A DNA stretch of 64,000 nt from a virus (lineage: Duplodnaviria; Heunggongvirae; Uroviricota; Caudoviricetes): the IMG/VR virus record IMGVR_UViG_3300032245_001714. One strand, written 5' to 3'. A model generated the notes under the pieces. The model made no database searches. It had not been told where the DNA came from and saw only the letters and a list, made by a program, of their open reading frames with translations. Positions 2,239-29,047 of this stretch are shown here, one piece after another. The position numbers and the translations under genes are program-made. Each line of letters begins with the position of its first letter. Position 1 is the stretch's first letter.

Positions 2239-2248
2239 AGGCTATCGA

Positions 2249-3998: not shown

Positions 3999-4036
3999 CC
4001 CAAATGACTCCACATATGCTCTGTGATATATAGCTT

Positions 4037-12466: not shown

Positions 12467-12497
12467 ATTAAAGAATATATACAAAAAAGTAATACTA

Positions 12498-13331
12498 ATG
12501 AGCAATATAAAATCATTTTCTGAATTTCTAAACGAAGGAGGGGGAGACTCTCTACTCGCTGCTGCGGGAGCAATGTTTAAAGACCTTATGAGCGATGATG
12601 ACAAAAAATCAGATAGCGAAACCCCAACAACAATAGGTACACATAAACCGGGGGAACAAACATCTATAGATTCAGGCAACGGAACTTCTGGAATAGACGT
12701 TAAGATTGTTCCCGGAAATGATGATTTCACTTTGTATATGCAACATCAACAGGGTATTGCTGGAGCTAAAGGTCTAATTCAGGCTTCTCAAGGAACGGGT
12801 AAGATGGCACCAGATACAATCAAAACAAAAAAAGGAACCAAGTACGCAAATCTGGTAATGAACATCCCTAAGGATAGACCTCAAATCAAAGCTAATCTAA
12901 TAAAAGCTTTAGATGCAGGCGATCAGAAAACTGCTGCTTTGTTATTTTTAAATATGTGGAAAGAGAAATGGGCTTCTAAAGGTAAAGAGGCACTTACCCT
13001 TATCAGTCAGCCAAAGAATGCAGCAGTAAAACAAACTATCCAAAAGTACTGCACAAAATACGGAGTTCCGTTTGAATTTGCAGCAACAGTAGCAAATATA
13101 GAATCTGGATTTAATCCCAATTCGGGCAACAGTAAATACAAAGGGCTATTTGCTCTTAGTCAGAGTGAATTCAGTAAATACGTTCCTGGTGGAAATATTT
13201 ATAATCTGGATAACAATGTAAACGCTGGAATACAATGTCTTAGAAACAACATCAGAGACTTTAAAAAATATTTGGGCCCAGCAACTTTAGCAACATTAAG
13301 ATTAGGATCTTGGGCTAGCTCAATAGCTTAA
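12498..13331 (+). CDS. lytic transglycosylase (SLT-like) domain protein carrying the N-terminal tag
   Basis: ESGFNPNSGNSKYKGLFALSQ fits the E-S...G-L-[MF]-Q SLT motif; N-terminus MSNIKSFSEFLNEG. Confidence 0.6.
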   Translation: MSNIKSFSEFLNEGGGDSLLAAAGAMFKDLMSDDDKKSDSETPTTIGTHKPGEQTSIDSGNGTSGIDVKIVPGNDDFTLYMQHQQGIAGAKGLIQASQGTGKMAPDTIKTKKGTKYANLVMNIPKDRPQIKANLIKALDAGDQKTAALLFLNMWKEKWASKGKEALTLISQPKNAAVKQTIQKYCTKYGVPFEFAATVANIESGFNPNSGNSKYKGLFALSQSEFSKYVPGGNIYNLDNNVNAGIQCLRNNIRDFKKYLGPATLATLRLGSWASSIA

Positions 13332-13340
13332 ATTATCTAT

Positions 13341-13730
13341 ATGGATTTTTCAGATTACAAAAAGAGCAAGTGGAATAACTTAGAGTTTTATCTTCCAACA
13401 GCAGGAGCTAATAATACTTTAACAACCTGGGATGAGATTGAATTAAATCTTAAAAAACTTGGACCTGGTTGGAGACTACCTAGTTTTAAAGAAATTGATT
13501 TTATAATTACAAAAAGTATAGAATATGAACTTGATGTTTTATTGGACGAGTATTGGACTAACGAAAATCCCGATAGGGAAGACGACGCTTTAAGTCATAG
13601 AGTGGTTCACACACTTTCGAATAAGGAAAGAATGGAAACCAGACCTATGTACTACTATTATGAAAACGGACCGGATGATTACGATACCGAGCCAAGCACA
13701 GCAAACGCTGCTTTTGTGAGAGATTTATAA
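13341..13730 (+). CDS. hypothetical protein (129 aa)
   Basis: ORF track entry. Confidence 0.5.
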   Translation: MDFSDYKKSKWNNLEFYLPTAGANNTLTTWDEIELNLKKLGPGWRLPSFKEIDFIITKSIEYELDVLLDEYWTNENPDREDDALSHRVVHTLSNKERMETRPMYYYYENGPDDYDTEPSTANAAFVRDL

Positions 13731-13793
13731 AAATCTCCAATTAATTTTTTATTTTCGAAATCTTTCCCTACATTTGTGATCTAAATTACAATT

Positions 13794-13946
13794 ATGGATA
13801 AGATAGAAGTTCAAAAACAAATCTTCCAAAAACAAAAAGATGGGTCGTTTACCGATGATGCGATTCGTATAGAAGCCTACATCGTCATCTCAGTACTCGT
13901 ACTGTGTTTTATAGGAATTGGTTATATTGCTATCAAGTTCGGATAG
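13794..13946 (+). CDS. small membrane protein (50 aa, read by hand)
   Basis: Manual translation: MDKIEVQKQIFQKQKDGSFTDDAIRIEAYIVISVLVLCFIGIGYIAIKFG. Its first 17 nt duplicate the start of the gene at 14070. Confidence 0.35.
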   Translation: MDKIEVQKQIFQKQKDGSFTDDAIRIEAYIVISVLVLCFIGIGYIAIKFG

Positions 13947-13953
13947 CATTTTT

Positions 13954-14055
13954 GGTCAGGTGGTGTAATGGCAACATGGGGTTCGACCCCCCAATCAACC
14001 CAGTAGTGGGACGATACAGAAAGGCAAGATACAGGTTCGAATCCTGTCCTGACCG
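13954..14055 (+). tRNA. tRNA-like gene, atypical (~102 nt)
   Basis: Acceptor GGTCAGG/CCTGACC, D arm GTGT-AATGGCA-ACAT and T arm ACAGG-TTCGAAT-CCTGT, but about 51 nt lie between the D and T arms. One hairpin there, GGGG-TTCGACC-CCCC, could carry a CGA anticodon, which would make it Ser-like. Confidence 0.5.
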
Positions 14056-14069
14056 CTAAAATAAAAATT

Positions 14070-14378
14070 ATGGATAAGATAGATGCAATTATCGAATACT
14101 GCAATAACATTGTTAAGAGGGATGATGTTATGCTTAAAACCCGATTCGGTGTAACCTCAGAAGAGCTTTCCCACATTGCTCACATTGGATCTTCTATAGT
14201 ACTTAATAGAATAGGTGCTAGACCCGGAGGAGGTTTTGTTGAAGCTGTTTGTGAGAATAACCTTATAGCAGCATCGGGAAGAGCGGATAGCACAATGCAG
14301 AAAGTCCTAGCTTATATGGCGATGACCTTTGCATCAGACTACGATAGAATTTCATACGAAGCAACTAAAAATATTTAA
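14070..14378 (+). CDS. hypothetical protein (102 aa)
   Basis: ORF track entry. Confidence 0.5.
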   Translation: MDKIDAIIEYCNNIVKRDDVMLKTRFGVTSEELSHIAHIGSSIVLNRIGARPGGGFVEAVCENNLIAASGRADSTMQKVLAYMAMTFASDYDRISYEATKNI

Positions 14379-14383
14379 ACGTT

Positions 14384-15196
14384 ATGCCAGAAGGACCAGA
14401 AGTTAGAAGAATGTCTGAGGGTTTAGCCCAGAGAATTGTCGGAAAAGATTTAGCTAAAGCTGAAGTGATCGGAGGTAAATGGTTAAAGAAGCCACCCACG
14501 GGGATTTCGATTATTCAAGAATCTCTGTTAGATTCCCCACAGAGAGTTCATTGGGTAAAGGTGAAAGGAAAATTCATCTATGCAAAAATAGGAGAGATCT
14601 TCATGTGGAACACGTTGGGAATGAGCGGAGGATGGAGAGATCTAAAAGGAAAGCACGCACATTTTGTTCTTGAATTCACCGATGGATCCTCAGTGTACTT
14701 TGATGATGTTAGAAGGTTTGGTAACATTTCATTCTATGATAATTCCAATCAGATTGAAGAGAAACTAAAGGGAGCTGGACCTGATCTACTTAACGAAGAT
14801 GTTGGGTTTGATTTATTTAAAGAAAGACTGGTAAAGAGAGGGAATAAAAACATTTGTCAACTTTTAATGGATCAGAAGGTTGTAAGTGGTATAGGAAATT
14901 ACATTAAAAGCGAATCTTTATATAGGGCAGGGATAAATCCCCATCTCAAGGCTAACGAGATTCCGGATGATGGATTAAAAAAGCTATGGGAGTGGAGCAG
15001 AAAAATTATAAAAAAGAGCTACGATCAGGGAGGTGCAACTCTGGCTACCTACACGGACATGGACGGAAACCACGGGAGTTTTGTTTTCTCTTTCGAAGTT
15101 TATCGGAGGGAAAAAGATCCTCTGGGTAATGAGATTAAACATGAAATAACACCAGACGGGAGAATGACCCACTGGGTACCTCAAATACAAAAATAA
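14384..15196 (+). CDS. Fpg/Nei-family DNA glycosylase (formamidopyrimidine / endonuclease VIII-like), zincless-finger type
   Basis: N-terminal MPEGPEV (catalytic Pro2, Glu3); H2TH motif VVSGIGNYIKSESLYRAGINP; the C-terminus lacks the Cys4 zinc finger. Confidence 0.75.
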   Translation: MPEGPEVRRMSEGLAQRIVGKDLAKAEVIGGKWLKKPPTGISIIQESLLDSPQRVHWVKVKGKFIYAKIGEIFMWNTLGMSGGWRDLKGKHAHFVLEFTDGSSVYFDDVRRFGNISFYDNSNQIEEKLKGAGPDLLNEDVGFDLFKERLVKRGNKNICQLLMDQKVVSGIGNYIKSESLYRAGINPHLKANEIPDDGLKKLWEWSRKIIKKSYDQGGATLATYTDMDGNHGSFVFSFEVYRREKDPLGNEIKHEITPDGRMTHWVPQIQK

Positions 15197-15200
15197 AAAC

Positions 15201-15428
15201 ATGGAATCTTTAACTATTAACTACTCGGAGGGAAGAGTAACCTCCATCAACAAAACATTTAATGGGGAATTTAAAGGCCGTTCTTTTGAAATATACGCTA
15301 ACTGGAATGAATGGGACGAGTGGACAGTTGAAAATATAATGTATTTAGATACTTCTCTTAGTGAGGAGATGAATTCCGAGACCTACGGAGAGATAGAATC
15401 TGCTTTTTTGGACGAAATGTATCAGTAA
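15201..15428 (+). CDS. hypothetical protein (75 aa)
   Basis: ORF track entry. Confidence 0.45.
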   Translation: MESLTINYSEGRVTSINKTFNGEFKGRSFEIYANWNEWDEWTVENIMYLDTSLSEEMNSETYGEIESAFLDEMYQ

Positions 15429-15465
15429 AGACTTTGGATATATACTTTAAATAAAAGAGTATAAA

Positions 15466-15966
15466 ATGCCAATATTTCAACTTACAGCGTCAAGAAGTTA
15501 TAATCCGGTAGATAATCCGGTTAACAGAACAGTCGGAACCGTGGGGGCTACATCAGGAAGCACAACGGTTAGCATCACTTCAGCTGATAGAGGAGCAGTT
15601 AGTGCTATTTCTTCCTCTATTGCAACAAGGACAGTAACTGTTATAGGTTCAACTCTTCCTCTAGGAGGCTCAGTTACCAGTGCTTCTGGCACAACTATCA
15701 CTTTAACTTATCCGTATTCAGTCTCAGTTTCAGCAGGTCCATCAGGAGATTGGATTAACTGGTATTTTAAAGACGCACCAAACGAAAAACAACTCCCTAT
15801 AACTAGTGTTTTAGCTGCATCAGGGTCAACATTAGCTTATCTCGACCTAGATGGAACAAATGCAACATTAACCGGAGTAACCGGACAATTGGGAATATCG
15901 GTTCTAAGAACAGTAGCTGGAACTACAGGATCTGTTTGGGGATACAGCAGAGGTTATTCAAACTAA
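15466..15966 (+). CDS. hypothetical Thr/Ser/Gly-rich protein (166 aa), possibly structural
   Basis: Composition only. Confidence 0.5.
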   Translation: MPIFQLTASRSYNPVDNPVNRTVGTVGATSGSTTVSITSADRGAVSAISSSIATRTVTVIGSTLPLGGSVTSASGTTITLTYPYSVSVSAGPSGDWINWYFKDAPNEKQLPITSVLAASGSTLAYLDLDGTNATLTGVTGQLGISVLRTVAGTTGSVWGYSRGYSN

Positions 15967-16028
15967 TAATAGTCCAAAACCAACACCTATAAGGGGGATT
16001 CAGATAATATTTGAGTCCCTCTTTATTT

Positions 16029-16040
16029 GATATATAGGGT
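16029..16040 (+). promoter_or_regulatory. GATATATAGGG start-proximal motif
   Basis: tgatatatagggt followed by ATG. Confidence 0.4.
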
Positions 16041-17129
16041 ATGCCTAACATTTTAAACTACACTTCTTTTAGCAATCACATAAAAGAATCCAAAATTAAC
16101 GAGGGATTTATCCCCTCTGGAGATCCAAACTGGCCCACAAATTGGAAGGACATGCCAGAATGGAAGACCCTCCAACAACTTGGTTTTAGCGATGTGACAA
16201 CTTCACGTATGGCTTTAAATCAAACTATATTGCTAAAAAACTTTACCCGAGATCTAGGATACAAGGATGGCATAGTTCTACAAAAAAGTGGCTACATTAG
16301 GGATAAATCGGTTTCTAGTGGTTTCATTAAAAGATATAAAGATTTCCCTGTCGATCTAAAGGATATTTTAGACTACCTAATACAAAGATGGGAGAAAGAT
16401 GTCCAGAGAGACATCAGAACTAAAAACCATGGGCCTTTAACTGATGATCAAATTAAAGCAGTTAATAGAGTTACCAAAGGAAAATGGAAGTATAACGATC
16501 AAACTAAAAAAGTTGACTTTTCATCCTCAGTTGAGGTAAATTCAGATAAAGACATCAGTGATCTCTCTGGTGTTCAGTTCGGAAAGGTCGATGGCTCCTT
16601 TGTTATCAGGGTAAAAGTCAAAGATCTAAATATAGCACCAAGATATGTTGGTGGTAATTTTAGGATTGACAGTAGTGATTTCTTAAAAAATCTAATTGGA
16701 TCCCCTGATGAAATCAGAGGGTCTTTCTCTATATACGGATCAAGAGTTCCTAGGGATCTATCTGGACTGACTCTTCCTGGGAATATTAAAGGTGGATTGT
16801 ATGTGAATTCATCAGATGACTTTGGATTTCATTTTTTCCCGAGCAAATATGACTGGACAATCGAAGGTATAATGAAGGCAATTTTAGAATTCAACGGAGG
16901 TTACAACACAGGTCATCTTCCAATAAAGAATAAGGAAAGTTTGGATTCCTTACTTTCTTATCTTGAGGGTGTAGGTTCAGGACATTATCTATATAAATAT
17001 TTTGAAGATAATCCGTTGGACATCTATCTCCTAGATTCTTTACCTGAGTTAAAGGAAAAAGTTTTAAAGAAATTAGGGATCAAAGACATTGGCAGAATAG
17101 GCAAGATGATAAGATCTGGATTATACTAA
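16041..17129 (+). CDS. LRR-like family member 6 (degenerate repeats, divergent C-terminus)
   Basis: MPNILNYTSFS...KINEG; shares the N-terminal region (...DLSGVQFGKVDGSF...APRYVGGNF); GATATATAGGGT lies upstream. Confidence 0.6.
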   Translation: MPNILNYTSFSNHIKESKINEGFIPSGDPNWPTNWKDMPEWKTLQQLGFSDVTTSRMALNQTILLKNFTRDLGYKDGIVLQKSGYIRDKSVSSGFIKRYKDFPVDLKDILDYLIQRWEKDVQRDIRTKNHGPLTDDQIKAVNRVTKGKWKYNDQTKKVDFSSSVEVNSDKDISDLSGVQFGKVDGSFVIRVKVKDLNIAPRYVGGNFRIDSSDFLKNLIGSPDEIRGSFSIYGSRVPRDLSGLTLPGNIKGGLYVNSSDDFGFHFFPSKYDWTIEGIMKAILEFNGGYNTGHLPIKNKESLDSLLSYLEGVGSGHYLYKYFEDNPLDIYLLDSLPELKEKVLKKLGIKDIGRIGKMIRSGLY

Positions 17130-17144
17130 ATCGAATTATATTAG

Positions 17145-17831
17145 ATGAAAAAAATATTAAATTTTAAAGAGCTTTTTGAAGCTGCTACCAATTTTCCTAG
17201 TAACATTTCTGAAATTCCTTCCCACGAGGAGTTAAGTAAACTTCCAAGTTTTTTGATGTTTAAAAATTTTATGCCCGCATCTTGGGTCACAGGTAGTGTT
17301 GCATACAAGAATGGGACAAGAACTTTAGGAATGGGGCCTGTGGTTTCTATTGACGGAAAACCATTTCATGTTTTTAATTTTTATCCTTTAAAAGGTCAGA
17401 TAATAAGAGATGGTTATACAGTTAGAAGGTGCAATCTTGTTACTATGGATGACTGGAATAAAGCCGTTGAGAATATGAGCAACTACTTCATTTCCACTCT
17501 TCTACCAAGAATCGGATTCAGAAATAATTACAACAGCAACATTGCTAAATTAAAAGCTGGAAAAAACCCAGAACTCATGAAAGAGATTCTCACAAATTCA
17601 GCAAAATTAGATCCATTTCCCGGATTGATTGAATATATTCTGGTATCCGCTCTATTAAATTCTGAAGATTCTAGTGAAATTGTAGATTTAATTTATGCGA
17701 GTCCCTATAAATTTAAAATCATGAGCTCTCTTAAAAAGAATAGTCCAGAGGTTTGGAAAATACTTAAAAATAAATTAGGTGATCTTGATTCGGTAGAAGC
17801 CTCTGCTGATTTGGGAGATCTAGGGTTTTAA
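17145..17831 (+). CDS. paralog of the LRR-family C-terminal domain (no repeats), ending ADLGDLGF
   Basis: MKKILNFKELFEA...; C-terminus PEVWKILKNKLGDLDSVEASADLGDLGF. Confidence 0.6.
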   Translation: MKKILNFKELFEAATNFPSNISEIPSHEELSKLPSFLMFKNFMPASWVTGSVAYKNGTRTLGMGPVVSIDGKPFHVFNFYPLKGQIIRDGYTVRRCNLVTMDDWNKAVENMSNYFISTLLPRIGFRNNYNSNIAKLKAGKNPELMKEILTNSAKLDPFPGLIEYILVSALLNSEDSSEIVDLIYASPYKFKIMSSLKKNSPEVWKILKNKLGDLDSVEASADLGDLGF

Positions 17832-17836
17832 TTAAC

Positions 17837-18316
17837 ATGTTTAAATACATTTCAGAAATACTAAAACAGTTTACCCGGGCTCAGAAGACCCTGGCTTTAC
17901 TGATGCTTCTTTTTTCAATTACGATTATAACAATAGCTCCCTCCCTTATATCTGCTTTAACTGTAGACTGCAAGGATCTTAAGGAGGAAAACGCAAGAAA
18001 CAGCTCTAGAATACAAATACTTGAGAATCAGGTTGACACTCTTAATGCTAAAATAAGAAGGGAGAGGAATGATTGCGGAGATAATGCTTACCAGAGGGAG
18101 AAGGAGTTTTATGCTATGCTGGAGGATTTAAGAAAGGATGCAAAGAAATACGAGGAGTCATCCTCTAATAAAATGTTGAGAATGGTTGTAAGAAGGCCAG
18201 CTTCAGACACAACAGAATCCCCTGTTACTGAGATTAGAAATGAAACGAGCATTAAATACCCAAAGATGTCTGATAAGATAAAAGATATCCAGAATAAGCT
18301 CAACCTTAAACACTAA
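17837..18316 (+). CDS. membrane-anchored coiled-coil protein (159 aa)
   Basis: An N-terminal transmembrane segment followed by heptad-like repeats. Confidence 0.5.
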   Translation: MFKYISEILKQFTRAQKTLALLMLLFSITIITIAPSLISALTVDCKDLKEENARNSSRIQILENQVDTLNAKIRRERNDCGDNAYQREKEFYAMLEDLRKDAKKYEESSSNKMLRMVVRRPASDTTESPVTEIRNETSIKYPKMSDKIKDIQNKLNLKH

Positions 18317-18318
18317 AA

Positions 18319-19440: not shown

Positions 19441-19491
19441 TCCTGTATATATCCAATATACAATGATACTGAGGAGGATATATAGTCTGTA

Positions 19492-19992
19492 ATGGAGCAT
19501 ATTTTACTTTTTGAGAGCTTTTTAAAAAGGGACGATTTAGGATCTAGATCCAGATTTATAGGAAATTTAGTGTTTGACTTTTGGCATTTCGACACCAATA
19601 TTCAAAAATCTAATCTACCTCCTTCCTTAAACTCAGAAGAGCTTATCGAATTAGCCCCAAGCATTGCTCAGGGATATTTCACTAAAGGTAAAGGACCTGG
19701 AACATACCTAGGATGCGAGGAATCACCGACGGGAGAATTTGTTTCTATCGTTTTAACTGAACCCTCTCCCTTGAAATTTGACTTTGAAGTTTTTGACAGC
19801 GAATACGAAAGAGTGTGCGAGATTAAAAATACAAGCTTTGACACTCTTCTTAGTGATATTTCTAAGCTTGAAAATAGATTTAAAGTTGCTTCAATACTAA
19901 AAAAGACCCCGGATCTCTGGGATATATTAAAAAGAAATAACGATGCTGACTCGGCTTCGGCTTCTGCAGATCTGGGAGAACTTGGATTTTAA
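19492..19992 (+). CDS. paralog of the LRR-family C-terminal domain, ending ADLGELGF
   Basis: MEHILLFESF...; C-terminus DLWDILKRNNDADSASASADLGELGF; GGATATATAGTCTGTA lies upstream. Confidence 0.6.
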   Translation: MEHILLFESFLKRDDLGSRSRFIGNLVFDFWHFDTNIQKSNLPPSLNSEELIELAPSIAQGYFTKGKGPGTYLGCEESPTGEFVSIVLTEPSPLKFDFEVFDSEYERVCEIKNTSFDTLLSDISKLENRFKVASILKKTPDLWDILKRNNDADSASASADLGELGF

Positions 19993-20009
19993 TTTTACAA
20001 CATAAAGAT

Positions 20010-21050
20010 ATGAAAAGAATACTAGATTTTAAAATTTTCGAATCCTCATCAAATTTAACTGAGGAGCAAGAACAATTCCTCGAAGAGGTGGTTGACGGTG
20101 AATGGGAGTACAACTCCTTAACCAGAAGAATAGACATCCAAGGAGACTTGGATTGCTCCGATCACGATCTATCGGATTTTAAAGGAATTCTATTTGGAAC
20201 AGTCTCAGGAAACTTTGATTGTAGCCACAACGACTTAGATGGTCTAAAGGGTGCACCAGAAGAAGTTGGGGGTAGCTTTGATTGCGACTACAATAAATTA
20301 ACAAGTTTAAAGAATGGACCTTTAACAGTTGGAGTTGATTTCAATTGCTCTTATAACAAGAAGCTAAAAAGTTTAGAATTTGCCCCTAGTGAAATCGGAG
20401 GTAAAGTTGATTGCTCACATTGCGGATTAACTTCATTAGAAGGATTACCTAAAAAGATAAACGGCAGTTTAATCTGTAGCTATAATAATTTAGAGGATCT
20501 TTCAGGAGCTCCTAAATCAGTTAGATCTCTTATGGCTCAAAATAATGATCTTGAAACATTGGAAGGATGTCCGGAAGATATTTCTAAGAACATTAATGTC
20601 AGTAACAATAAACTTAAGAATCTAAAAGGACTTAAACCTGGCACGACATCTATTAAAGGAAACATGGATTTTTCTAAAAATCAGATCACAGATATAAGCG
20701 ATATTCCAATCCCTCAAGGAACCGTAAATTTTGAGGAGAATGGAATTGCTCCAAAAATTTATGATTCTCTTGTAAACACGTTTAAGGTAATGAAGCAATA
20801 TAATTTAAGTTTTAAAAATGCTTTACTTAGAAGTTGGGAAGATAGATGGTCCGATAAGTCTAATGTAATCAGAAATCTATTCTCATTAGCCGACGTTTCA
20901 ACTGCTTATGGTGCTATAACCGATCACCCTAAGAAGTTTGAAATAATAGATCATATTAAGAAGGAGCTTCCTGATATCTGGAAAACAATTGAAGATTACG
21001 ATAAAGAAGGTTCGGACGCATCTGCAGATCTTGCAGACTTAGGATTCTAA
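20010..21050 (+). CDS. LRR-like repeat protein, family member (C-terminus ...ADLADLGF)
   Basis: MKRILDFKIFES; repeats GAPEEVGGSFDCDYNKLTSLKNGP... Confidence 0.7.
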   Translation: MKRILDFKIFESSSNLTEEQEQFLEEVVDGEWEYNSLTRRIDIQGDLDCSDHDLSDFKGILFGTVSGNFDCSHNDLDGLKGAPEEVGGSFDCDYNKLTSLKNGPLTVGVDFNCSYNKKLKSLEFAPSEIGGKVDCSHCGLTSLEGLPKKINGSLICSYNNLEDLSGAPKSVRSLMAQNNDLETLEGCPEDISKNINVSNNKLKNLKGLKPGTTSIKGNMDFSKNQITDISDIPIPQGTVNFEENGIAPKIYDSLVNTFKVMKQYNLSFKNALLRSWEDRWSDKSNVIRNLFSLADVSTAYGAITDHPKKFEIIDHIKKELPDIWKTIEDYDKEGSDASADLADLGF

Positions 21051-21070
21051 ATAAACAAAAATATAAAAAA

Positions 21071-21499
21071 ATGAAACATATTCAAATTTTTGAAGCTTAC
21101 ACAGCAAAGGGTGATAAGATTGATAAAGCAAGAGATCTCTTCGCTATGTTAAAAGAGAAGGATTTTAGATCCGTTGAAGTTGAAGACTTTATATTTAGTC
21201 TAAATCAAAAGGAGATTAATGAGTTTAAGAAAAAATTTGCTCAAGGTGGGATAGTAAACAGAAAGAGTTTTAATCTTCTAACAAAATACTTTAAGAATTT
21301 CCTTGATCTTGAATTCCTAGATGAAGTTATAGAATCAACAAAAGATGCTTTTGAAACGCTTGAGTATGCTGCCAACTACGAGAGAAATCCCGAAGATCAG
21401 AAAAAAATGGCAAGAGATCTTCTCCAGAACAAAGACGAGATTATGAGAAGACTAAATAATTTAAAATCTAGAATAGAGAAATATCAGAGCGAAATTTAA
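21071..21499 (+). CDS. hypothetical protein (142 aa), tag-like N-terminus MKHIQIFEAY
   Basis: ORF track entry. Confidence 0.5.
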   Translation: MKHIQIFEAYTAKGDKIDKARDLFAMLKEKDFRSVEVEDFIFSLNQKEINEFKKKFAQGGIVNRKSFNLLTKYFKNFLDLEFLDEVIESTKDAFETLEYAANYERNPEDQKKMARDLLQNKDEIMRRLNNLKSRIEKYQSEI

Positions 21500-21500
21500 C

Positions 21501-22325
21501 ATGCAGAATATACATTCATATAAGGACTTTATAAACGAGGCAATTAAATATCTAAGTACGGATGAACTTTTCAGTTGGCTAGAAAAGAGAAAAAATTGCA
21601 CATTCATAGCTCTAGACACAGAAACAACAGGACTAAGAGGTCCTTGGAAAGAGCAACTAACTCAAATAGCTGCAGTAGCATTCTCTTTCGATTTTGAATC
21701 ATTAAAATTCTCAGAGGTTGATAGCTATAATGAAAAAATTAAGCTAACTCCGGAAACATTAGCTCAGAAAGACACGGAGGGATCCAGAATAAAAGACGTT
21801 TTTAAATACACAAGATATGGAGTAAGTAAAGGTAAATTCAAAGAAGAACAAGAGGTAATTGATAACCTAATAAAATTTGTTAATCAATTTGACAGTACTG
21901 TTCTTTTAATACAGAATGCACCTTTCGATATGCCGATGATTAATATCAGATCAGAGTTCAAAGGGTTAGATACAGAGATTTTTGACACAAAGGATTTCTT
22001 TGCATACTTCATGCTTCCAACTCTTCAGAAACTAGCTGAGACTGATCCAGAGGTTCAAAAAATATTAACCGCAATAGGAACAACATCAGGAGGTAAACTC
22101 CCAACATCTTCTCTACCTAAAGTTGCTGCTGGTCTCGGAATAGATCCTAACGAAGCACATGATGCGCTATTCGATTGCAGATATATGGTTTATGTTTTAG
22201 AGAGAGGTCTTGAAATAGTAAGCCAAAATAGAGAGATAGACAGAAAAGAATTTATTAGACCTAGAATTTCCACAGATCGTTATATTAAGATGAAAAACAA
22301 AATGAATTTAGGTAAATTGAGATAA
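21501..22325 (+). CDS. DnaQ-like (DEDDh) 3'-5' exonuclease
   Basis: Exo I motif FIALDTETTGL; Exo III motif HDALFDCRYMVY. Confidence 0.65.
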   Translation: MQNIHSYKDFINEAIKYLSTDELFSWLEKRKNCTFIALDTETTGLRGPWKEQLTQIAAVAFSFDFESLKFSEVDSYNEKIKLTPETLAQKDTEGSRIKDVFKYTRYGVSKGKFKEEQEVIDNLIKFVNQFDSTVLLIQNAPFDMPMINIRSEFKGLDTEIFDTKDFFAYFMLPTLQKLAETDPEVQKILTAIGTTSGGKLPTSSLPKVAAGLGIDPNEAHDALFDCRYMVYVLERGLEIVSQNREIDRKEFIRPRISTDRYIKMKNKMNLGKLR

Positions 22326-22810
22326 TGAAAAAGGTAAAAACATTTTCTGATTATATTGAAGGCATAAAAAAGCTAGATCCTATTAACTCCGGGAGATCTT
22401 TTCGAATGGAGAATCAGGATGTAACAAAATTGGCTTCAGACATTATCAAATTCATGGATGAGGAAGAAGGCATAAAGTTCAAAGAAATGCCTAAGATTTT
22501 TTTCAGCAGAGCTAAGCAAGAAGAATTCCCTGTTTTCAAAGAGACTGGGAATTATTCACCTGATTTTAATCAAATTATCATCTACACAAAAGGAAGATCA
22601 CTTAAAGACTGTCTAAGATCACTAACCCACGAATTAATTCATGCAGATCAGAAGCTCAATAAAGGCATGGATATAGAAAAGGCCGCAGAGGGTATTTACA
22701 AAAAATCAAAAGGCTCAGAGAAAATAGAGGCTGATGCCTACAAGAGAGGAAATCTCATTTTTAGAAAATGGGAGGAATCTTTAAGAAATAAATCTGAAAG
22801 TTTTTCTTAG
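22325..22810 (+). CDS. small putative HExxH metallopeptidase (161 aa)
   Basis: LTHELIHADQ; N-terminus MKKVKTFSDYIEG. Confidence 0.45.
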   Translation: MKKVKTFSDYIEGIKKLDPINSGRSFRMENQDVTKLASDIIKFMDEEEGIKFKEMPKIFFSRAKQEEFPVFKETGNYSPDFNQIIIYTKGRSLKDCLRSLTHELIHADQKLNKGMDIEKAAEGIYKKSKGSEKIEADAYKRGNLIFRKWEESLRNKSESFS

Positions 22811-22986
22811 TGACTTGATCTGATGATCAGGTACACCATTGAAGCTATAAAGGTAATTAAAAGACCAAGAATAGCTATACCCTGGATTTTATAATTTCCC
22901 TCTACCTGTTTTTTACTTCTCCCCTGATGTTCTTCAGGCTTGTACCAGTCGTCTAATTTTACTGATTTGCTCATTTCTATAAATTT

Positions 22987-23652
22987 TTATATGAGGTTCC
23001 CCTCTTTATCGAATTTATAGTCATTAGCTGTGATAAAGTTCTCGATGTAATCGTCGGAAGTGAAACTTTCGTATTCATCCTCCAGTTTTCTGTAGAATTC
23101 TCTGCATTTAGATCTGAGCCAATCGTTACCCTTCTCCTCGATCTTTCCTGCCTCTTTCTCCATGTCTATTATAATTGAGAAATCGACAGAAACCGGAAAT
23201 TCCAATTCTGTCTCCTCCAAATCAACTTCAACATCAACTGTGTTCTCGTGAACGTATCTAGATTGAGATCTTTTTATCTCTATTGTTAAATTATCATAGA
23301 CCTCTGGTCTTAAATCTCTAATACCCAGAACATCCTCTATGAATTTTTTATTATCCGTGATACTTCCTGTAAAAGAAGCCCCGTCGCCTTGACTGTAGAA
23401 TCCACTAAATTGAAAGTCTACATCTTCTATCCCTATCTCCGCTAGTTCATCCTCAAATTCTTTCACCATTTCCTTGTACCAATCATGGGGGATCAGATCT
23501 TCGTCAGATCTAAAATTATCTATTGCCTTAGCTTGTGCATAGGTATCCAGCTCCTCATAGGAGTATTCAGTTTCGTCCTCTGGTTCTGCCATTTTAAAAG
23601 TTTCTTGAACCTTAGTGCTTCCCAGAAACCCCATATATTTTAGTATCGCCAT
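22987..23652 (-). CDS. hypothetical acidic protein (221 aa)
   Basis: GATATATAGGAC lies immediately 5' of the ATG on the minus strand. Confidence 0.55.
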   Translation of the reverse strand: MAILKYMGFLGSTKVQETFKMAEPEDETEYSYEELDTYAQAKAIDNFRSDEDLIPHDWYKEMVKEFEDELAEIGIEDVDFQFSGFYSQGDGASFTGSITDNKKFIEDVLGIRDLRPEVYDNLTIEIKRSQSRYVHENTVDVEVDLEETELEFPVSVDFSIIIDMEKEAGKIEEKGNDWLRSKCREFYRKLEDEYESFTSDDYIENFITANDYKFDKEGNLI

Positions 23653-23666
23653 GTCCTATATATCTT
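23653..23666 (-). promoter_or_regulatory. GATATATAGG start-proximal motif, minus strand
   Basis: Reverse complement: agatatataggac followed by ATG. Confidence 0.4.
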
Positions 23667-24010
23667 TATTTTCTATAACAGACGGGGTTTCAATATATAC
23701 AAGTGGATAACAAAGAATCCCTGAATTTTTCCATTAAAAGATGTTTTCTTGGAAATATCTCAAGTATTTTCCACGATACGAGTAAATTCAGAAAAAAATT
23801 TCCATTATGGACGACCCTGGTGATACAAAAAACAAAAATAAAAGAAAAATTACCAATATGGTTCTTGATGGCTTCCATGTTTTTTTTTCCGTTAGGATAC
23901 GATGGGCTATTTGCTTACATAATGCGATTAACGGGTAGCTATTGGATCGCAGACATAATATTCTATGTAATATCAGGAATTTTTTTTGTCGCTTACCTTT
24001 TTTCTAAAAA

Positions 24011-24688
24011 ATGGATTACCAAAGACACTACGATAGATTAATAGAAACTAGGTCTAATCTCAATAGAAAGAAAGGATCTGGTGTCTATTACGAGCTTCAT
24101 CATATAAATCCTCTTTGCATGGGAGGGGATAATTCAGAAGGCAATTTAATATTACTAACAGCCAGAGAACATTTTATAGCGCATTTACTTTTATTTAGGG
24201 TTTATCCTAATAGCATAGGTCTTTCTTTCGCTTTCTGGTTAATGTGCAATTCGGACAGTAAATATAAATGCGGATCTAGATTATATTCAGAAATGAGAAG
24301 TGATATATCCGAAAAATTTAAGGGGGTTAGTAAAAGTGAATCAACTAAAAAGAAAATGAGGAAACCAAAAAGCGAATCCCATAAAGTAAATATTTCTTTA
24401 GGACTCCTAGGAATTAAATTTACGGAATCCCATAGAATGAACATTTCTAAATCTGCTAAGGGATTAGTACTTTCGGATACTGTAAAATTAAAGATGTCAG
24501 AATCTAGGAAGGGCGATAAAAATTCTTTTTATGGGAAATCCCACAGTCCTGAGACCAGGGAAAGATTAAAGGAATCTTGGAAAAACAGAGAAGAATCTAG
24601 CTGTCCTCACTGTAATAAGTCCAGTAAAAATATGGGGAATCTTAAAAGATTCCATTTTGACAATTGCAACAAAAAACCCGGAATCTAG
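24011..24688 (+). CDS. freestanding HNH homing endonuclease with NUMOD3-like repeats
   Basis: HNH core YYELHHINPLCMGGDNSEGNLILLTAREHFIAHLL, followed by three SES[RTK]K.... repeats (SESTKKKMRK, TESHRMNISKSAKG, SESRKGDKNSFYGKSHSPETRERLKES). Confidence 0.7.
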   Translation: MDYQRHYDRLIETRSNLNRKKGSGVYYELHHINPLCMGGDNSEGNLILLTAREHFIAHLLLFRVYPNSIGLSFAFWLMCNSDSKYKCGSRLYSEMRSDISEKFKGVSKSESTKKKMRKPKSESHKVNISLGLLGIKFTESHRMNISKSAKGLVLSDTVKLKMSESRKGDKNSFYGKSHSPETRERLKESWKNREESSCPHCNKSSKNMGNLKRFHFDNCNKKPGI

Positions 24689-24815
24689 AAAGATCCCGGG
24701 TTGAACCAAAACAAACACCTATGAAAGCTGCTATTGTGTAACAAATCCTTCGTAGGGTTACTGATATTATAGACTTACTATACTTTTTGTTTCGAATAGA
24801 TTCGTCTATATTGAA

Positions 24816-25130
24816 TTAAAAATTATCGTCTTCTATCAGATCGTTGAAAAGATCGCGGAAGCATCCTCTTAGCTCCTTTTCATTTTCCGGTAGATTATCA
24901 TACACAATACCTGGATGTTCTTTTGAGGCAAGCTCAAAACACTTACCCACTATAGAACTACCGTATTTACCGGTTAATTCCTGCATCTTCTCTTTTTTTA
25001 TAACAAGGTAGTTCATGCTTAGATTTTTGTAAATTACTTCTCTTGCTTTTACGTATATAACCAAACTCACTCCAAAAATAAGAATAACGATAGCTATAGC
25101 TCTCATTACGGCATCTAAATACCAAATCAT
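24816..25130 (-). CDS. hypothetical protein with an N-terminal TM segment (104 aa)
   Basis: ORF track entry. Confidence 0.45.
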   Translation of the reverse strand: MIWYLDAVMRAIAIVILIFGVSLVIYVKAREVIYKNLSMNYLVIKKEKMQELTGKYGSSIVGKCFELASKEHPGIVYDNLPENEKELRGCFRDLFNDLIEDDNF

Positions 25131-25882
25131 GACCTAACTATGGGTATTAAAATTTTAGTGACAAAAGCTTCCATATCGTCTAAAGAGATGAGATCAACAG
25201 AGTCCTCGTCGGTGTGGCACCTTGACCAAGATCTATTATCTAAGAACCCTCTCTGATTAGATATAAAAGAAACACCCTCAGTTAAAAGAGGTAACGGGTT
25301 TAGTACCGTGCTATCTATTCCTGCCATTCTAAAAGCAGTCGTGTCGCTAACAGGTGTCTTGACCACCGTGGGGTTAAACATCTCCAATATTTTATCATTC
25401 AGATTTCCAGGGTTGTCTCCTATTATAAAATTTTCACCGCCCATCCCAGATAGCTCCAAATTTATAACCCCTTCTATTTTTCCATAAACCCCTTGGTTGA
25501 TCTGCTCTGCTAACCTAGTTGCCCCTATGAGCCCAACCTCCTCTCCGTCAGTTAAAACAACGGTTGCCTCTGGCACCAGTGACTTAAGATAAATTGCATT
25601 TATAACAGAAGCTGAATTGTCATTTGCATTGTCAGAATCCGGATTCACTATATCATGGTGAGCTGTGATGATATACTTGGAAGTCCCAGGTAGAATTACA
25701 TTATAGAAGTTGTTTTTTCCTGAAAAACTAAAAGCGTCAATGATCTTTTTTATTCCAAATTTTTCTAGCATTGATAGAATAAAAATAACCCTAGGGGTTG
25801 GCACCCTACCGTTTTCCGTAGCGTTTCCTTTATTCCTAGCTTCTTGGCAGAATGGGTATATTGCCTCTAATATATTATCCAT
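25127..25882 (-). CDS. M28-family zinc peptidase-like protein
   Basis: Metal-binding spacing HHD...D...EE...D...H as in TAHHDIV, LTDGEEVGLIG and CHTDED. Confidence 0.6.
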   Translation of the reverse strand: MDNILEAIYPFCQEARNKGNATENGRVPTPRVIFILSMLEKFGIKKIIDAFSFSGKNNFYNVILPGTSKYIITAHHDIVNPDSDNANDNSASVINAIYLKSLVPEATVVLTDGEEVGLIGATRLAEQINQGVYGKIEGVINLELSGMGGENFIIGDNPGNLNDKILEMFNPTVVKTPVSDTTAFRMAGIDSTVLNPLPLLTEGVSFISNQRGFLDNRSWSRCHTDEDSVDLISLDDMEAFVTKILIPIVRS

Positions 25883-25884
25883 AA

Positions 25885-26307
25885 CTAAATGTTTTTAATT
25901 TCTCTTTCGATCTCTCTTGATCTAATCCTTTCTCTTTTGTCATATTCCTTTCTTCCTTTAGCTAGAGAAATCTTTACCTTTATTAAATTCCTATCTGATA
26001 AAAAAATTAGGGTTGGAACTATAGTGACCCCTTTATCTAAACCCTTTTGAAGTTTTGAAATCTCTTTCTTTTTTAGTAAGAGTTTTTTATTTCGAAGTGG
26101 ATCGTGGTTCCAGTCCTTAGAATCTGCTGAGATGTGCATGCCTTTTAGCCACACCTCGCCATCTTGTATAAAGCAAAAAGCATCCACCAGAGAAACCCTT
26201 GATTCTCTGATGGCCTTAACTTCAGATCCATAGAGGCATATACCTGCGTTAAATTCCTCTATAAAGCTGTAATCAAAATTAGCTTTTCTGTTTTTTATCG
26301 GATTCAT
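25885..26307 (-). CDS. smpB: SsrA-binding protein SmpB homolog
   Basis: Colinear with E. coli SmpB: EEFNAGICLYGSEVKAIR, HDPLRNKKLLLKKKEI, KVKISLAKGRKEYDKRE. Confidence 0.75.
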   Translation of the reverse strand: MNPIKNRKANFDYSFIEEFNAGICLYGSEVKAIRESRVSLVDAFCFIQDGEVWLKGMHISADSKDWNHDPLRNKKLLLKKKEISKLQKGLDKGVTIVPTLIFLSDRNLIKVKISLAKGRKEYDKRERIRSREIEREIKNI

Positions 26308-26313
26308 TCTGAA

Positions 26314-26991
26314 TTATTTTTTCTTCTTCTTAAGAACCACCTCATCGATGATTCCGTATTTAACCGCTTCATCAGCACTCAGCCAAAAATCTCTTGTTGC
26401 GTCCTTCATGACCTGCTCTGGCTTCTTTCCACAGTAACCTCCTAGAAGATCGAAAAGAATTTTGTTAACCTCTTCCCATTCTTTCATGTCAATTTTAGCG
26501 TCTTGAATGTTCCCCCTGAATCCTCCACTTGATTGGTGTAACATCACCTTGCTGAATCTAAGTGAGCTACGCTTTCCTTTAGTACCTGCTCCAAGTAAAA
26601 CTGATCCCATTGAAGCTGCCATTCCGGTGTTAACTGTTCTGATGTCTGCAGAAATGTATTCCATTACATCAACCATAGATAAACCTGATTTTACTGAACC
26701 CCCTGGAGAGTCTATGTGCATGGTGATATCTCTATCATCAACAGAGTCTAAAAACATTAACTGTGCTTGGACAACTGTTGACATGCTATCATCAACCTCA
26801 CCCGCTACCCATAGAATGCGGTCACGCATTAATCGAGAAAAGATGTCCATTTGGGTTACTCTCATTTCTCTTTCTTCTAGGATGTAAGGAGTCATTGAAG
26901 ACTCTATCTTTTTTTCGAAATAGTTGATTCGGGAAGAAGAAATCCCGTATTCACTTCTGGCGTACTTTTCAAATTCTGATCGATAATTCAT
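26314..26991 (-). CDS. clpP: ClpP-family serine protease (S14) with an N-terminal extension
   Basis: IDSPGGSV, catalytic Ser in GMAASMGS, His in MLHQSSGG. Confidence 0.8.
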   Translation of the reverse strand: MNYRSEFEKYARSEYGISSSRINYFEKKIESSMTPYILEEREMRVTQMDIFSRLMRDRILWVAGEVDDSMSTVVQAQLMFLDSVDDRDITMHIDSPGGSVKSGLSMVDVMEYISADIRTVNTGMAASMGSVLLGAGTKGKRSSLRFSKVMLHQSSGGFRGNIQDAKIDMKEWEEVNKILFDLLGGYCGKKPEQVMKDATRDFWLSADEAVKYGIIDEVVLKKKKK

Positions 26992-26995
26992 ATTG

Positions 26996-27379
26996 CTATT
27001 TTATTTTTTCCCATTTCATTTCTTCGAATGCCCAGACAGGTAAACATTTAATTTTAACCTCTGTTGTCCATTCAAGCTCTACTATTATAAGGTCTTTCCA
27101 TTTGGGTGAAAATTCACCCATATTATTAGACATGTTTTTCGTATAAATTTCGCCCTCCCCCTTCCAAATCATAGCGGGTGTTGCCATTATCATTGGACCT
27201 CCTGGAGGGTCTATGAGGAGCAAATTTCCGGCAGGATCCCTTGAAACCTTCACAAATTGGCTGAGCTGACCTCCACTCATAATGAACTCCAGTTCGGAAA
27301 TCCTTGTGAATTTAAGACAATCACCATATCGGTTTACGTATATTTCCTCCTCTTTGATCCATTTGCCATTTAATCTCAT
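26996..27379 (-). CDS. hypothetical protein (127 aa)
   Basis: ORF track entry; a TATATAT-containing motif upstream. Confidence 0.5.
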   Translation of the reverse strand: MRLNGKWIKEEEIYVNRYGDCLKFTRISELEFIMSGGQLSQFVKVSRDPAGNLLLIDPPGGPMIMATPAMIWKGEGEIYTKNMSNNMGEFSPKWKDLIIVELEWTTEVKIKCLPVWAFEEMKWEKIK

Positions 27380-27452
27380 ACGGATGCAAATATATAGAAA
27401 GATTCCGAAATAAAAAAATATTTAGGGATAAATATATCATAAAACACATAAG

Positions 27453-28253
27453 ATGACAAAAATTAAGAGTTTTTTAGATTTTAGATTGGACGAGGTTTCA
27501 ATGGCAATAGCTGATCCATCCACGGCAGGCGATCGTTTTGCTGAGATTCTTGCAAACACCAAGAACGTTAAAGAATCTCCAGTTGGATCTAATTCAGGAC
27601 CAGAAGTTAATAGCTATCTAAAAAGTGTAGGACTAGGTCCCGGCGAACAATGGTGTGCAGCCTACGTTTATGCTATGTTCGATGAACTTTCTAAAAGACT
27701 TGGAGTTCCAAACACCCTTATTAAAACCGGACATTGTCTAACCCACTGGAAATCTGCAGATCCTAGTTTAAAGATCAACATAGCAGATGCAAGGAAGGAC
27801 ATGAACCAAGTTAAACCCGGAATGGTATTTATGATGAAAAGAGGCGGAGGAGATAAAGGACACACCGGAATAGTTGTTTCTGTAGATCCATCTTCAAAAA
27901 CATTTACTTCAATTGAGGGAAATACCAACGATCAGAAATCAGGAGAAGGAGATAGAGTTGGTGTCAATAAAAGAAGTTTTTCTCAGACAAACCTATTAGG
28001 ATTTATAGATTATTTTAAAGGAAGAAGAACACCGGAATTTGATTCCGATATCTCTAAAGCTCTAGGAACTGTTGCTCCTTATATGGAAACGGAACCTGTT
28101 ATTAAACCACAATATGAAACTCCTGGTGAAGCTGTTGCAGGTAAAGAACCTCCGGCAACAATAGCAGGAAAGATATTAGGTGGACTGGCAAAATCTCTTG
28201 GTTACAGCACAGTAACTTCTGATAGCGCTTCTAAATTTTTGGGAGGTAATTAA
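27453..28253 (+). CDS. CHAP-domain peptidoglycan hydrolase carrying the N-terminal tag
   Basis: Catalytic Cys in GEQWCAAYVYAMF and His in DKGHTGIVVSVD; N-terminus MTKIKSFLDFRLDE. Confidence 0.65.
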   Translation: MTKIKSFLDFRLDEVSMAIADPSTAGDRFAEILANTKNVKESPVGSNSGPEVNSYLKSVGLGPGEQWCAAYVYAMFDELSKRLGVPNTLIKTGHCLTHWKSADPSLKINIADARKDMNQVKPGMVFMMKRGGGDKGHTGIVVSVDPSSKTFTSIEGNTNDQKSGEGDRVGVNKRSFSQTNLLGFIDYFKGRRTPEFDSDISKALGTVAPYMETEPVIKPQYETPGEAVAGKEPPATIAGKILGGLAKSLGYSTVTSDSASKFLGGN

Positions 28254-28958
28254 ATGAAACACATAAAAGAATATCAAGAATTTACTCAAGAATATGTTCT
28301 CAATGAGGGCCTTGGTGATATATGGGGTAGATTCGTATCCTTCATAAAAAGAGTTTTTTCTAGTGATAAACCAAAGGTTACAAAAGCACCAACCCCTCCA
28401 CCCCCACAATTAGTTGGACCTCATATGCTTTATCTTCCACATCAGCAGGGACCTAGCGGGGCAGCTAAAATTGTTAAGATTGCTAAGGGTAAAGAAAAAT
28501 TAGATCCAGGATTGAGAGCAAGAATGATTGCAAATCTACCTTCGTCCGATCTTTCTTATAATAAGGTTAAAACCGGAAAGGATAAAGAAGCTGTTTTAGC
28601 TTTTTTGGATTACCAACAAAGAACTTGGAATTCTTATAAAAAAGAAGCACTGAGTAAAATAAATCTACCGGACAACTCTAAAGCTAGAAAGGCTATCGAA
28701 AAAATACCAAACCCTAAGCTGAGTAAAGATTTTCTAACAACGGTTGCTTTCAAAGAGTCTAGGTTTGATCCTAATCCTAAATCCAATAAATCTTATACTG
28801 GTCTTTTTCAGATAGGTAAAGAGGCTTGGTCGCAACTTAAGAAAATAAACCCTTCTGTTTACAAAGGACCAAACCCTCCGTTAAATCCTTTTTTAAATGC
28901 TAGAGCTGGACACGACTACTTAGTTTGGTCGTACAATCAGTTTGAGAAGTCTATTTAA
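28254..28958 (+). CDS. lytic transglycosylase (SLT-like) protein carrying the N-terminal tag
   Basis: AFKESRFDPNPKSNKSYTGLFQIG; N-terminus MKHIKEYQEF. Confidence 0.6.
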   Translation: MKHIKEYQEFTQEYVLNEGLGDIWGRFVSFIKRVFSSDKPKVTKAPTPPPPQLVGPHMLYLPHQQGPSGAAKIVKIAKGKEKLDPGLRARMIANLPSSDLSYNKVKTGKDKEAVLAFLDYQQRTWNSYKKEALSKINLPDNSKARKAIEKIPNPKLSKDFLTTVAFKESRFDPNPKSNKSYTGLFQIGKEAWSQLKKINPSVYKGPNPPLNPFLNARAGHDYLVWSYNQFEKSI

Positions 28959-29047
28959 TCTATCAGAATCCCATTTTTCCACTGTATCCAGTTTAAAAAG
29001 TTTTTAGACATAAAAGATGGATACTTTTCCTATATGTTTGGTATAAA

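Follow-up and report, generated by a model that had tools for sequence, protein, structure and literature searches.

Three cell-wall enzymes with a common N-terminal tag

We analysed a stretch of 64,000 nucleotides (hereafter the window) from the Caudoviricetes record IMGVR_UViG_3300032245_001714, whose source scaffold is scaffold_43 of ENA ERZ28594238 (105,858 bp), and focus on three genes for predicted cell-wall enzymes that share an N-terminal sequence, which we call the tag. These are SLT1, an SLT-like lytic transglycosylase of 277 amino acids (12498..13331, + strand; first residues MSNIKSFSEF), a CHAP peptidase/amidase of 266 amino acids (27453..28253, +; MTKIKSFLDF), and SLT2, a second SLT-like lytic transglycosylase of 234 amino acids (28254..28958, +; MKHIKEYQEF). 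A preliminary description of the window had named these open reading frames (ORFs) and their N-termini, all of which were confirmed, and its assignment of one CHAP and two SLT-like domains was borne out by Pfam (SLT1, E 6.3e-07 over residues 180-257; CHAP, E 6.4e-09, residues 64-157; SLT2, E 5.9e-10, residues 153-231), with all three matches exceeding the curated gathering cut-offs.

The CHAP stop codon is directly abutted by the SLT2 start codon, so that CHAP and SLT2 look like one operon. SLT1 and SLT2 are paralogues, with 28% identity along the whole of both proteins (E 4e-20), and the preliminary view of an "unusually redundant" lysin set is overstated: one CHAP enzyme and two paralogous glycan-strand enzymes address two bond types. 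The three enzymes have 47, 496 and 218 metagenomic orthologues, on contigs of up to 391 kb; nearly all of the listed orthologues contain PF01464 or PF05257 alone, with one exception that adds PG_binding_1.

The CHAP domain (residues 64-157; 27642..27923, +) contains C68 (27654-27656), H137 (27861-27863) and an E155-G-N motif, and residues C68, H137, E155 and N157 are invariant in the orthologue alignments, one of which holds 30 sequences. In the AlphaFold2 model the core has a predicted local distance difference test score (pLDDT) >90, and the top Foldseek matches are PlyPy (5udn; E 7e-4, prob 0.99), LysIME-EF1 (prob 1.00) and the CHAP domain of the phi812 hub (prob 0.99), the last of which is virion-borne. 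The tagged protein combines a papain-like CHAP fold with the catalytic Cys and His and a third polar residue.

In SLT2, the SLT-like core (residues 153-231; 28710..28946, +) aligns with residues 465-542 of Escherichia coli Slt70, placing E168-S169 (28755-28760) opposite the E-S pair of the ARQESAWNP segment, whose Glu (E478) is the catalytic residue of Slt70. Residues E168, S169, G183, L184 and Q186 are invariant among 26 aligned orthologues, and a GLFQ motif is present. The SLT1 core (residues 180-257; 13035..13268, +) matches Pfam positions 2-85 of 117 and keeps its E202-S203 catalytic motif (13101-13106) in at least 98% of 116 aligned orthologues; where a GLMQ-type motif is expected it has GLFAL, with no Gln. 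Searches of the PDB by sequence returned a marginal Slt70 match for SLT2 and no matches for CHAP or SLT1. Structure prediction, which had been proposed as a check of the catalytic residues, gave a confident core for CHAP; for SLT2, whose model has a mean pLDDT of 86, the resemblance to lytic transglycosylases was weak.

The tag heads about a quarter of the ORFs in the window

The tag spans residues 1-13 of SLT1 (MSNIKSFSEFLNE; 12498..12536, +), where it ends in L-N-E, residues 1-14 of CHAP (MTKIKSFLDFRLDE; 27453..27494, +) and residues 1-18 of SLT2 (MKHIKEYQEFTQEYVLNE; 28254..28307, +). Of the 116 SLT1 orthologues at least 98% keep E13 and at least 90% keep N12, and F10 together with the last glutamate of the tag is invariant in 30 orthologues of CHAP (E14) and 26 of SLT2 (E18).

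Among the ORFs of at least 60 amino acids in the window, we found the pattern M-x(1-4)-[ILVM]-xx-[FYW]-xx-[FYW] at the start of 24 out of 95, compared with ~0.95 expected from its internal frequency (binomial P ~1e-26); two of these 24 (22987 and 36784) resemble chance matches. The tag that had been described as common to three lysins is therefore indeed on all three, but it is not lysin-specific, being common to about a quarter of the window ORFs. It also heads leucine-rich-repeat (LRR) proteins, an RNase_T exonuclease, a MoxR-type ATPase, a pterin-4a dehydratase, a protein with an HExxH motif and many uncharacterised proteins. The Pfam families among its carriers are unrelated. The window is AT-rich (GC ~36%); an artefact of composition was ruled out, as the internal frequency of the motif predicts ~1 occurrence and not 24.

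The consensus of the tag is MK(R/H)IKxFxxF[ILV]xE, and within the window two subtypes can be told apart, ending in F[ILV]NE or [LIV]FES. Nearly all of the ~120 CHAP orthologues begin MKRIKxFxxF[ILV]xE, with A, T, G, S or K as the next residue, the tag is present in 114 of 120 listed SLT1 orthologues (mostly as MKRIKSFxEF[ILV]NE) and in all 26 aligned SLT2 orthologues, and altogether nearly all of ~260 orthologues of the three enzymes keep both tag and glutamate. Residues F/Y7 and F10 are near-invariant in the window and in the orthologues, and the glutamate is the most conserved residue within an otherwise variable segment; in each of the three families it is either invariant or kept in at least 98% of the sequences. 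Synonymous codons vary at the conserved positions (TTT/TTC, TAT/TAC, ATT/ATA/CTT), so that the constraint acts on the protein. In the AlphaFold2 models the tag regions lie outside the folded domains and have low confidence (SLT2 residues 1-20, pLDDT <50; CHAP residues 9-13).

A region of a 735-kb uncultured phage (LR756501.1, 214179-254691) has similar, shorter N-termini (MKNFTRFINEN, MDKIVKSYRSFINEG and MIKKFGLFES), from which the tag family seems to extend to the largest known phages. No tags were found in the 41 kb examined of LR756508.1, the record with the best match to the Dda-like helicase of the window, or on a homologue of the LRR family in a cultured Vibrio phage.

The tag resembles the T4 capsid targeting sequence

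The capsid targeting sequence (CTS) of T4, MKTYQEFIAE, is cleaved once by the prohead protease and is sufficient to load foreign proteins into capsids (PMC8442874). Suppressor analysis has assigned its residues 4 and 7 to targeting and its residues 8 and 10 to processing (PMC9026906), and the gp21-family prohead proteases all cleave C-terminal to Glu (PMC5694885). We found that tag positions 7, 10, 11 and 13 correspond to CTS positions 4, 7, 8 and 10 with the same spacing. Like the CTS, the tag starts at Met1 of unrelated proteins, and carries aromatic or hydrophobic residues three apart followed directly by [ILV]-x-E; its length of 10-18 residues is comparable as well. More distant CHAP orthologues (loci L011-L016) have a 10-mer only, MKSF(K/R)(D/E)IL(N/S)E, which is nearly the T4 CTS. 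The candidate processing motif reads FLNE|G in SLT1; in CHAP it is F(R)LDE|V, where most orthologues have FIKE|T, and in SLT2 it is an invariant LNE|G, at residue 18.

There are also differences. The tag is three residues longer at its N-terminal side (the MKxIKx prefix) and is carried by ~25 ORFs in 64 kb, compared with 3-5 small basic proteins for the T4 CTS, and its would-be cargo comprises peptidoglycan hydrolases, LRR proteins, a nuclease and ATPases; we know of no natural peptidoglycan hydrolases borne by a CTS. Unlike the CTS proteins of T4, a subset of the tagged proteins has in addition a C-terminal DLGF-type tag.

We consider that the tag is probably a prohead-targeting propeptide.

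Relatives encode a prohead protease fused to tag-like repeats

As in T4, the genome clade of the tag has gp20-, gp21- and gp23-type head genes, and the tag motif resembles sequences of the scaffold. Locus L002 encodes a Peptidase_S77 (E 2.1e-07) and a Gp23 capsid protein (E 2.1e-38), and in both L001 and L002 the head genes lie ~5 kb upstream of a tagged CHAP orthologue with 61% identity to the CHAP enzyme of the window. One 270-kb contig holds both an SLT2 orthologue (L017) and the protease (L057). The complete, 462-kb genome of an uncultured phage, LR756500.1, has gp20-, gp21-, gp17- and gp18-like (sheath) genes and a Gp23-type major capsid protein (MCP), and the tag pattern heads 55 of its ORFs; where the tag is clear, it mostly reads MKYIKEYEEF[IL]xE.

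In these relatives the gp21-like Peptidase_S77 is fused to tandem 14-residue repeats, xIxY(S/T)(E/K)Y[LIV]AE(N/K)(L/V)Dx (L002, 1459-3516; L057, 10001-11950; loci L039-L118; LR756500.1, 226725-228623). The repeat core YSEY[LIV]AE has 15 strict matches in L002, compared with 0.15 expected, and 7-15 copies (median 13) in 80 relatives. The same motif is thus found in three places, namely the repeat core YSEY[LIV]AE, the T4 CTS core YQEFIAE and the tag core FxxF[ILV]xE, and the T4 scaffold protein gp22 contains EWLAEN, LIAEA, SIFES and ELFES, matching the F[ILV]NE and [LIV]FES subtypes of the window. The S77-repeat protein is probably a protease-scaffold fusion, its repeats being cut into 14-mers, and the similarity of the motifs points to the tag as one unit of the scaffold, which would assemble together with the repeats and be freed where they too are cleaved. 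Such a scaffold, fused to its protease and built of tandem CTS-like repeats, differs from that of T4.

The tag is also associated with the head genes by position, since 35 of 61 relatives have an ORF fitting the tag pattern directly 3′ of the MCP gene, and in many others the ORF at this place has a variant with H for an aromatic residue, for example MRKISSHKQFLIE. This tie to the head module bears on the possibility that the tag addresses a partner outside the capsid, either as an N-terminal degron or adaptor motif for the phage ClpP (26314-26991, adjoining CHAP) or as a signal for tail or baseplate assembly. Genes for ClpP, SmpB and an M28 peptidase do stand in a row immediately upstream of CHAP on the opposite strand (25127-26991, -), and the tail-hub CHAP domain of phi812 is a known example among the top Foldseek matches; but a ClpX or ClpA partner or an adaptor was not identified, and the specific match of the tag to the T4 CTS and to the protease-scaffold repeats speaks for the head, so that we regard a non-capsid partner as very unlikely.

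The capsid protein of L002 is 44% identical to that of LR756500.1, 44% to those of the Prevotella Lak megaphages, 38% to those of the Tenacibaculum phages PTm1 and PTm5, and ~30% to those of uncultured phages of 630-735 kb. In PTm1, the cultured MCP relative, no tag was found in 25 kb around the head genes, and both its scaffold repeats and its promoter-like motif (TACATA) differ; this cultured relative therefore offers no proteomic shortcut.

A promoter-like motif accompanies, and is separable from, the tag

A promoter-like motif, ATATATA[AG], has 21 matches in the window, 16 of which lie within 60 nt upstream of an ORF, and 14 of these 16 ORFs fit the tag pattern. One copy, ATATATAG (27390..27397, +), lies 55 nt upstream of the CHAP-SLT2 pair; for SLT1 there is only a variant, AATATATAC (12474..12482, +), 15 nt upstream of the start codon, whose last base deviates from ATATATA[AG] and whose assignment is weak. 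Further copies include those at 5034, 6130, 7397, 8700, 10747, 16030, 19478, 30079 (-) and 35009 (-). The motif is found upstream of the protease gene in 72 of 80 relatives and, in LR756500.1, before the MCP, protease, sheath and other structural genes. It is reminiscent of the T4 late motif TATAAATA and looks like a late or structural promoter. Mostly, only 3-4 nt separate its end from the ATG, which implies late mRNAs with almost no leader or none at all.

Such short or absent leaders, together with typical cytoplasmic enzymes among the tagged proteins, would fit an explanation in which the tag is no targeting signal but goes with one expression class (for example, as an N-terminus favoured on late mRNAs with little or no leader, or as one that stabilises the proteins) and the three enzymes are ordinary cytoplasmic endolysins released at lysis. 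Motif and tag are, however, not tied to each other: operon-internal genes without the motif (SLT2 and those at 21501 and 22325) keep the tag, whereas late structural genes with the motif (MCP, sheath and protease) are without it, so that these are two separate signals used together. The tag is conserved as amino acids while its codons vary, no translational rationale accounts for the aromatic spacing and the invariant Glu, and the tag has the form of the scaffold repeat unit. As a mere by-product of the promoter or 5′ region, the tag was ruled out by its presence on operon-internal genes and by the synonymous variation.

The endolysin part of this explanation draws on the enzymes themselves. 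Canonical holin-dependent CHAP and SLT endolysins have the same catalytic domain families, the PHROGs label of the closest CHAP families is "endolysin", and endolysins are among the closest PDB folds found by Foldseek. In contrast to canonical endolysins, the three enzymes share their N-terminal tag with non-lytic proteins; no signal peptide or signal-arrest-release (SAR) domain was found in CHAP, SLT1 or SLT2, whose N-termini are the hydrophilic tags, and no holin, spanin or membrane-protein ORF lies directly beside the CHAP-SLT2 pair, the neighbours of which are a 127-residue ORF of no assigned function, ClpP, SmpB and an AAA_28 protein. Near the three lysins there is a single holin-like candidate, a 50-residue ORF with one C-terminal transmembrane helix (13794-13946, +), ~460 nt 3′ of SLT1, and this would favour the endolysin explanation. 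Late expression, proposed in the preliminary description as a sign of endolysin function, cannot discriminate, because virion proteins and endolysins are both late. On balance, we consider an expression-class tag on ordinary endolysins unlikely.

The preliminary suggestion, made as a condition, that the tag is a capsid targeting signal gained substantial support at the level of sequence from its match to the T4 CTS, the scaffold repeat, the hydrophobic-x-E cleavage motif, its conservation and a promoter motif in common with the head genes.

A candidate route from the prohead to the host cell wall

We propose that the tagged genes would be transcribed late from the ATATATA[AG] promoters, and that the tag aromatics at positions 7 and 10 would dock the enzymes onto a repeat scaffold core inside the assembling prohead, a core that in this clade would be built from the prohead protease fused to its 7-15 copies of Y-S-E-Y-[LIV]-A-E. 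Once the shell is closed, the S77 (gp21-type) protease would remove the tag behind its conserved Glu, at LNE|G in both SLT1 and SLT2 and at LDE|V in CHAP. The mature CHAP and SLT-like enzymes would remain in the capsid, pass through the tail together with the DNA and break down, locally, the stem peptides (CHAP) and glycan strands (SLT1 and SLT2) of a Bacteroidetes-type host. We infer docking, cleavage, packaging, ejection and enzymatic activity of the three enzymes from their sequences. A role in entry is in keeping with the closest cultured-phage matches of SLT1, which are podophage "internal virion proteins" (33-35% identity over ~86 residues), and we lean slightly towards the whole chain, including this role, being correct.

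A Bacteroidetes host is likely because one SLT1 orthologue lies in a metagenome-assembled genome labelled Bacteroidetes, and because published huge phages of freshwater Bacteroidetes have similar content, including ClpP, polysaccharide genes and a "prohead core scaffolding and protease" gene (PMC9723584).

Several observations weigh against the proposed chain. No head genes were found in the window or in the examined regions of the 105.9-kb source contig, where the upstream flank has small ORFs only, so that the link to the protease rests on relatives. The CHAP tag of the window has a one-residue insertion relative to the consensus. Some tagged enzymes would normally be expected in the cytoplasm (RNase_T exonuclease, MoxR-type ATPase, pterin-4a dehydratase and PNK3P), and tagging of ~6-25% of ORFs would, to our knowledge, exceed by far the cargo of other phages. 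LR756500.1 encodes a RecA/UvsX-like protein (245619-246956, -; L030, 45619-46953; Pfam RecA E 5.8e-17) with a tag-like N-terminus, MAKEKIFTFDDFNDE, resembling that of the ATPase of the window, MGKKIYNFDDFVNES, and a tagged recombinase complicates a strict reading of the tag as a mark of capsid cargo only. The entry lysin of contractile-tailed phages normally belongs to the baseplate. Finally, the SLT domains are short: of the 117 positions of the Pfam model, the matches of SLT1 and SLT2 take in only 2-85 or 9-84, which is where the proteins end, and both lack the part of the domain beyond Slt70 residue 542, the region of the AYNxG motif. The best Foldseek matches of the SLT2 model are Slt70, MltF, MltE, phiKZ gp144 and the T7 ejectosome, all weak (E >=0.2, TM <=0.34).

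Neither SLT1 nor SLT2 hence has a complete SLT domain, the C-terminal lobe being absent. All aligned SLT2 orthologues share the same C-terminal boundary, and the Slt70 alignment ends at residue 542 of 618. We regard SLT1 and SLT2 as conserved, C-terminally short SLT-like enzymes for which activity is plausible.

The shortness of these domains, which may therefore not be catalytic, also enters a variant in which the tag does direct proteins to the core of the prohead, with the lysins having no part in entry. They could be transient core components that are degraded, or could serve as cargo in another role (for example on the envelope of neighbouring cells), with the entry lysin being a baseplate protein encoded elsewhere. 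In T4-like myophages a lysozyme is part of the tail, and a gp18-like sheath is encoded by LR756500.1; the T4 core proteins gp22, gp67 and gp68 are moreover cleaved to fragments (PMC5694885). Against this, the orthologues of each enzyme keep the catalytic residues, without exception or in at least 98% of sequences, which points to an enzymatic function retained in a folded, mature protein, and we judge this variant improbable.

More broadly, in a large clade of uncultured huge phages (relatives of the Lak phages and of freshwater Bacteroidetes phages, with contigs of up to 434 kb), the tag may mimic the scaffold repeat of the phage itself and load dozens of unrelated effectors for injection, among them peptidoglycan hydrolases, LRR proteins, nucleases, ATPases and a metallopeptidase; we hold this wider reading, including its list of effectors, as a serious possibility that falls somewhat short of probable. 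Hardly any huge phages are in culture, and little is therefore known of what their capsids contain. Should the tag act as the T4 CTS does, the proteins that uncultivated huge phages eject could be read from sequence, including wall-breaching enzymes and likely counter-defence effectors, and a mechanism known for a few small internal proteins of T-even phages would be widened to hundreds of gene families. The scaffold repeat would then be indicated as the docking partner and the T4 CTS would have originated as a detached scaffold repeat, and the tag would offer a natural packaging signal for engineered protein delivery. Capsid-borne lysins would be an unusual entry strategy for a contractile-tailed phage.

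Relation to other packaged and ejected proteins

The proposed mechanism would be of a known kind, that of the T4 CTS and the gp21 protease; what would be new is its scale, the lysin cargo, the three-residue extension, the protease-repeat fusion scaffold and the C-terminal tag on a subset of proteins. Targeted full-text searches of one paper collection for such a tag in huge phages or megaphages gave no description of it; they found only work on T4, SPN3US and P1, and a paper on bS21 phages with no mention of the tag.

SLT1 and SLT2 share with the internal virion proteins of the T7 gp16 type an SLT-type domain proposed to be capsid-borne and ejected to cut peptidoglycan. The likeness in sequence and structure comprises weak matches to PHROG 342 (E ~2e-4), the podophage matches of SLT1 given above and a weak Foldseek match to the T7 ejectosome chain 7k5c_B (31% identical over 96 columns, E 2.0). 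The two enzymes are small (234-277 residues), stand-alone, tagged proteins with a C-terminal SLT core, whereas in T7 gp16 the SLT domain is N-terminal in a core protein of >1000 residues, and the phage type here is a T4-like one with a contractile tail, whereas the T7 gp16 type is from a podovirus. SLT1 and SLT2 resemble the ejected transglycosylases of the T7 gp16 type functionally, but do not qualify as members of that family.

Giant phages of the phiKZ and SPN3US type package many diverse ejection or inner-body proteins into a giant capsid, the propeptides of these proteins being such as are removed after Glu by a gp21-family protease (PMC5694885, PMC10052503). These propeptides are mostly >100 residues long and have no short tag in common, and the cleavage motif is A/S/G-x-E, compared with [ILV]-x-E here.

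Other tagged genes and genome context

Further tagged ORFs lie between SLT1 and the CHAP-SLT2 pair, all on the + strand. They begin with an ORF headed by MPNILNYTSF (16041..17129), which has ATATATAG 3 nt before its ATG, followed by an ORF headed by MKKILNFKELFEA with the C-terminus ADLGDLGF (17145..17831), an ORF headed by MEHILLFESF with the C-terminus ADLGELGF (19492..19992; motif 6 nt before the ATG) and an LRR protein headed by MKRILDFKIFES with the C-terminus ADLADLGF (20010..21050). An ORF beginning MKHIQIFEAY (21071..21499) fits the tag pattern, and next to it are an RNase_T-type exonuclease headed by MQNIHSYKDFINE (21501..22325; Pfam RNase_T E 3.2e-08) and a 161-residue protein headed by MKKVKTFSDYIE (22325..22810), which has no Pfam match at E <=0.01 and contains HELIH, a zinc-metallopeptidase-like HExxH motif.

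Seven ORFs of the window, all with the N-terminal tag, end in (S/A)DLx(D/E)LGF-COOH (6142-7392, 7409-8695, 8712-9620, 10758-11510, 17145-17831, 19492-19992 and 20010-21050). In LR756500.1, 13 ORFs end in ADDFGFFDN or ADDFGLI, and 11 of these 13 have the N-terminal tag. The C-terminal tag could be a second targeting or processing signal, Alt of T4 being a protein with processing at each terminus, and it is also similar to C-terminal clamp-binding peptides.

The genes of the window include a Dda-like helicase, an RNA ligase, a MoxR-type ATPase with its vWA partner, ClpP, SmpB, an ECF-type sigma factor and sugar-modifying enzymes. The MoxR-type ATPase is tagged, and its DUF2201 metallopeptidase/vWA partner is split into two ORFs (51089-52639, 52661-53611 and 53629-54567 for the three genes). 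The MoxR/DUF2201 pair of LR756500.1 (200318-203494) lies within the structural module, between the terminase and a neck-protein gene and 3′ of a late-type motif. A megablast search of positions 12000-30000 against 50,697 phage records gave no match, so that at the nucleotide level no close cultured phage was found.

Three Rfam tRNA matches (13954-14055, +; 57184-57290, -; 57722-57814, -) are unusually long, at 93-107 nt, and may contain introns; ARAGORN called only 57721-57814, as tRNA-Asp with the anticodon ATC. The left end of the window (1-4000) has a GC content of 49-53%, compared with ~36% elsewhere, and contains two tag-like ORFs, at 1699-2238 and at 3557-3949, the latter encoding the pterin-4a dehydratase.

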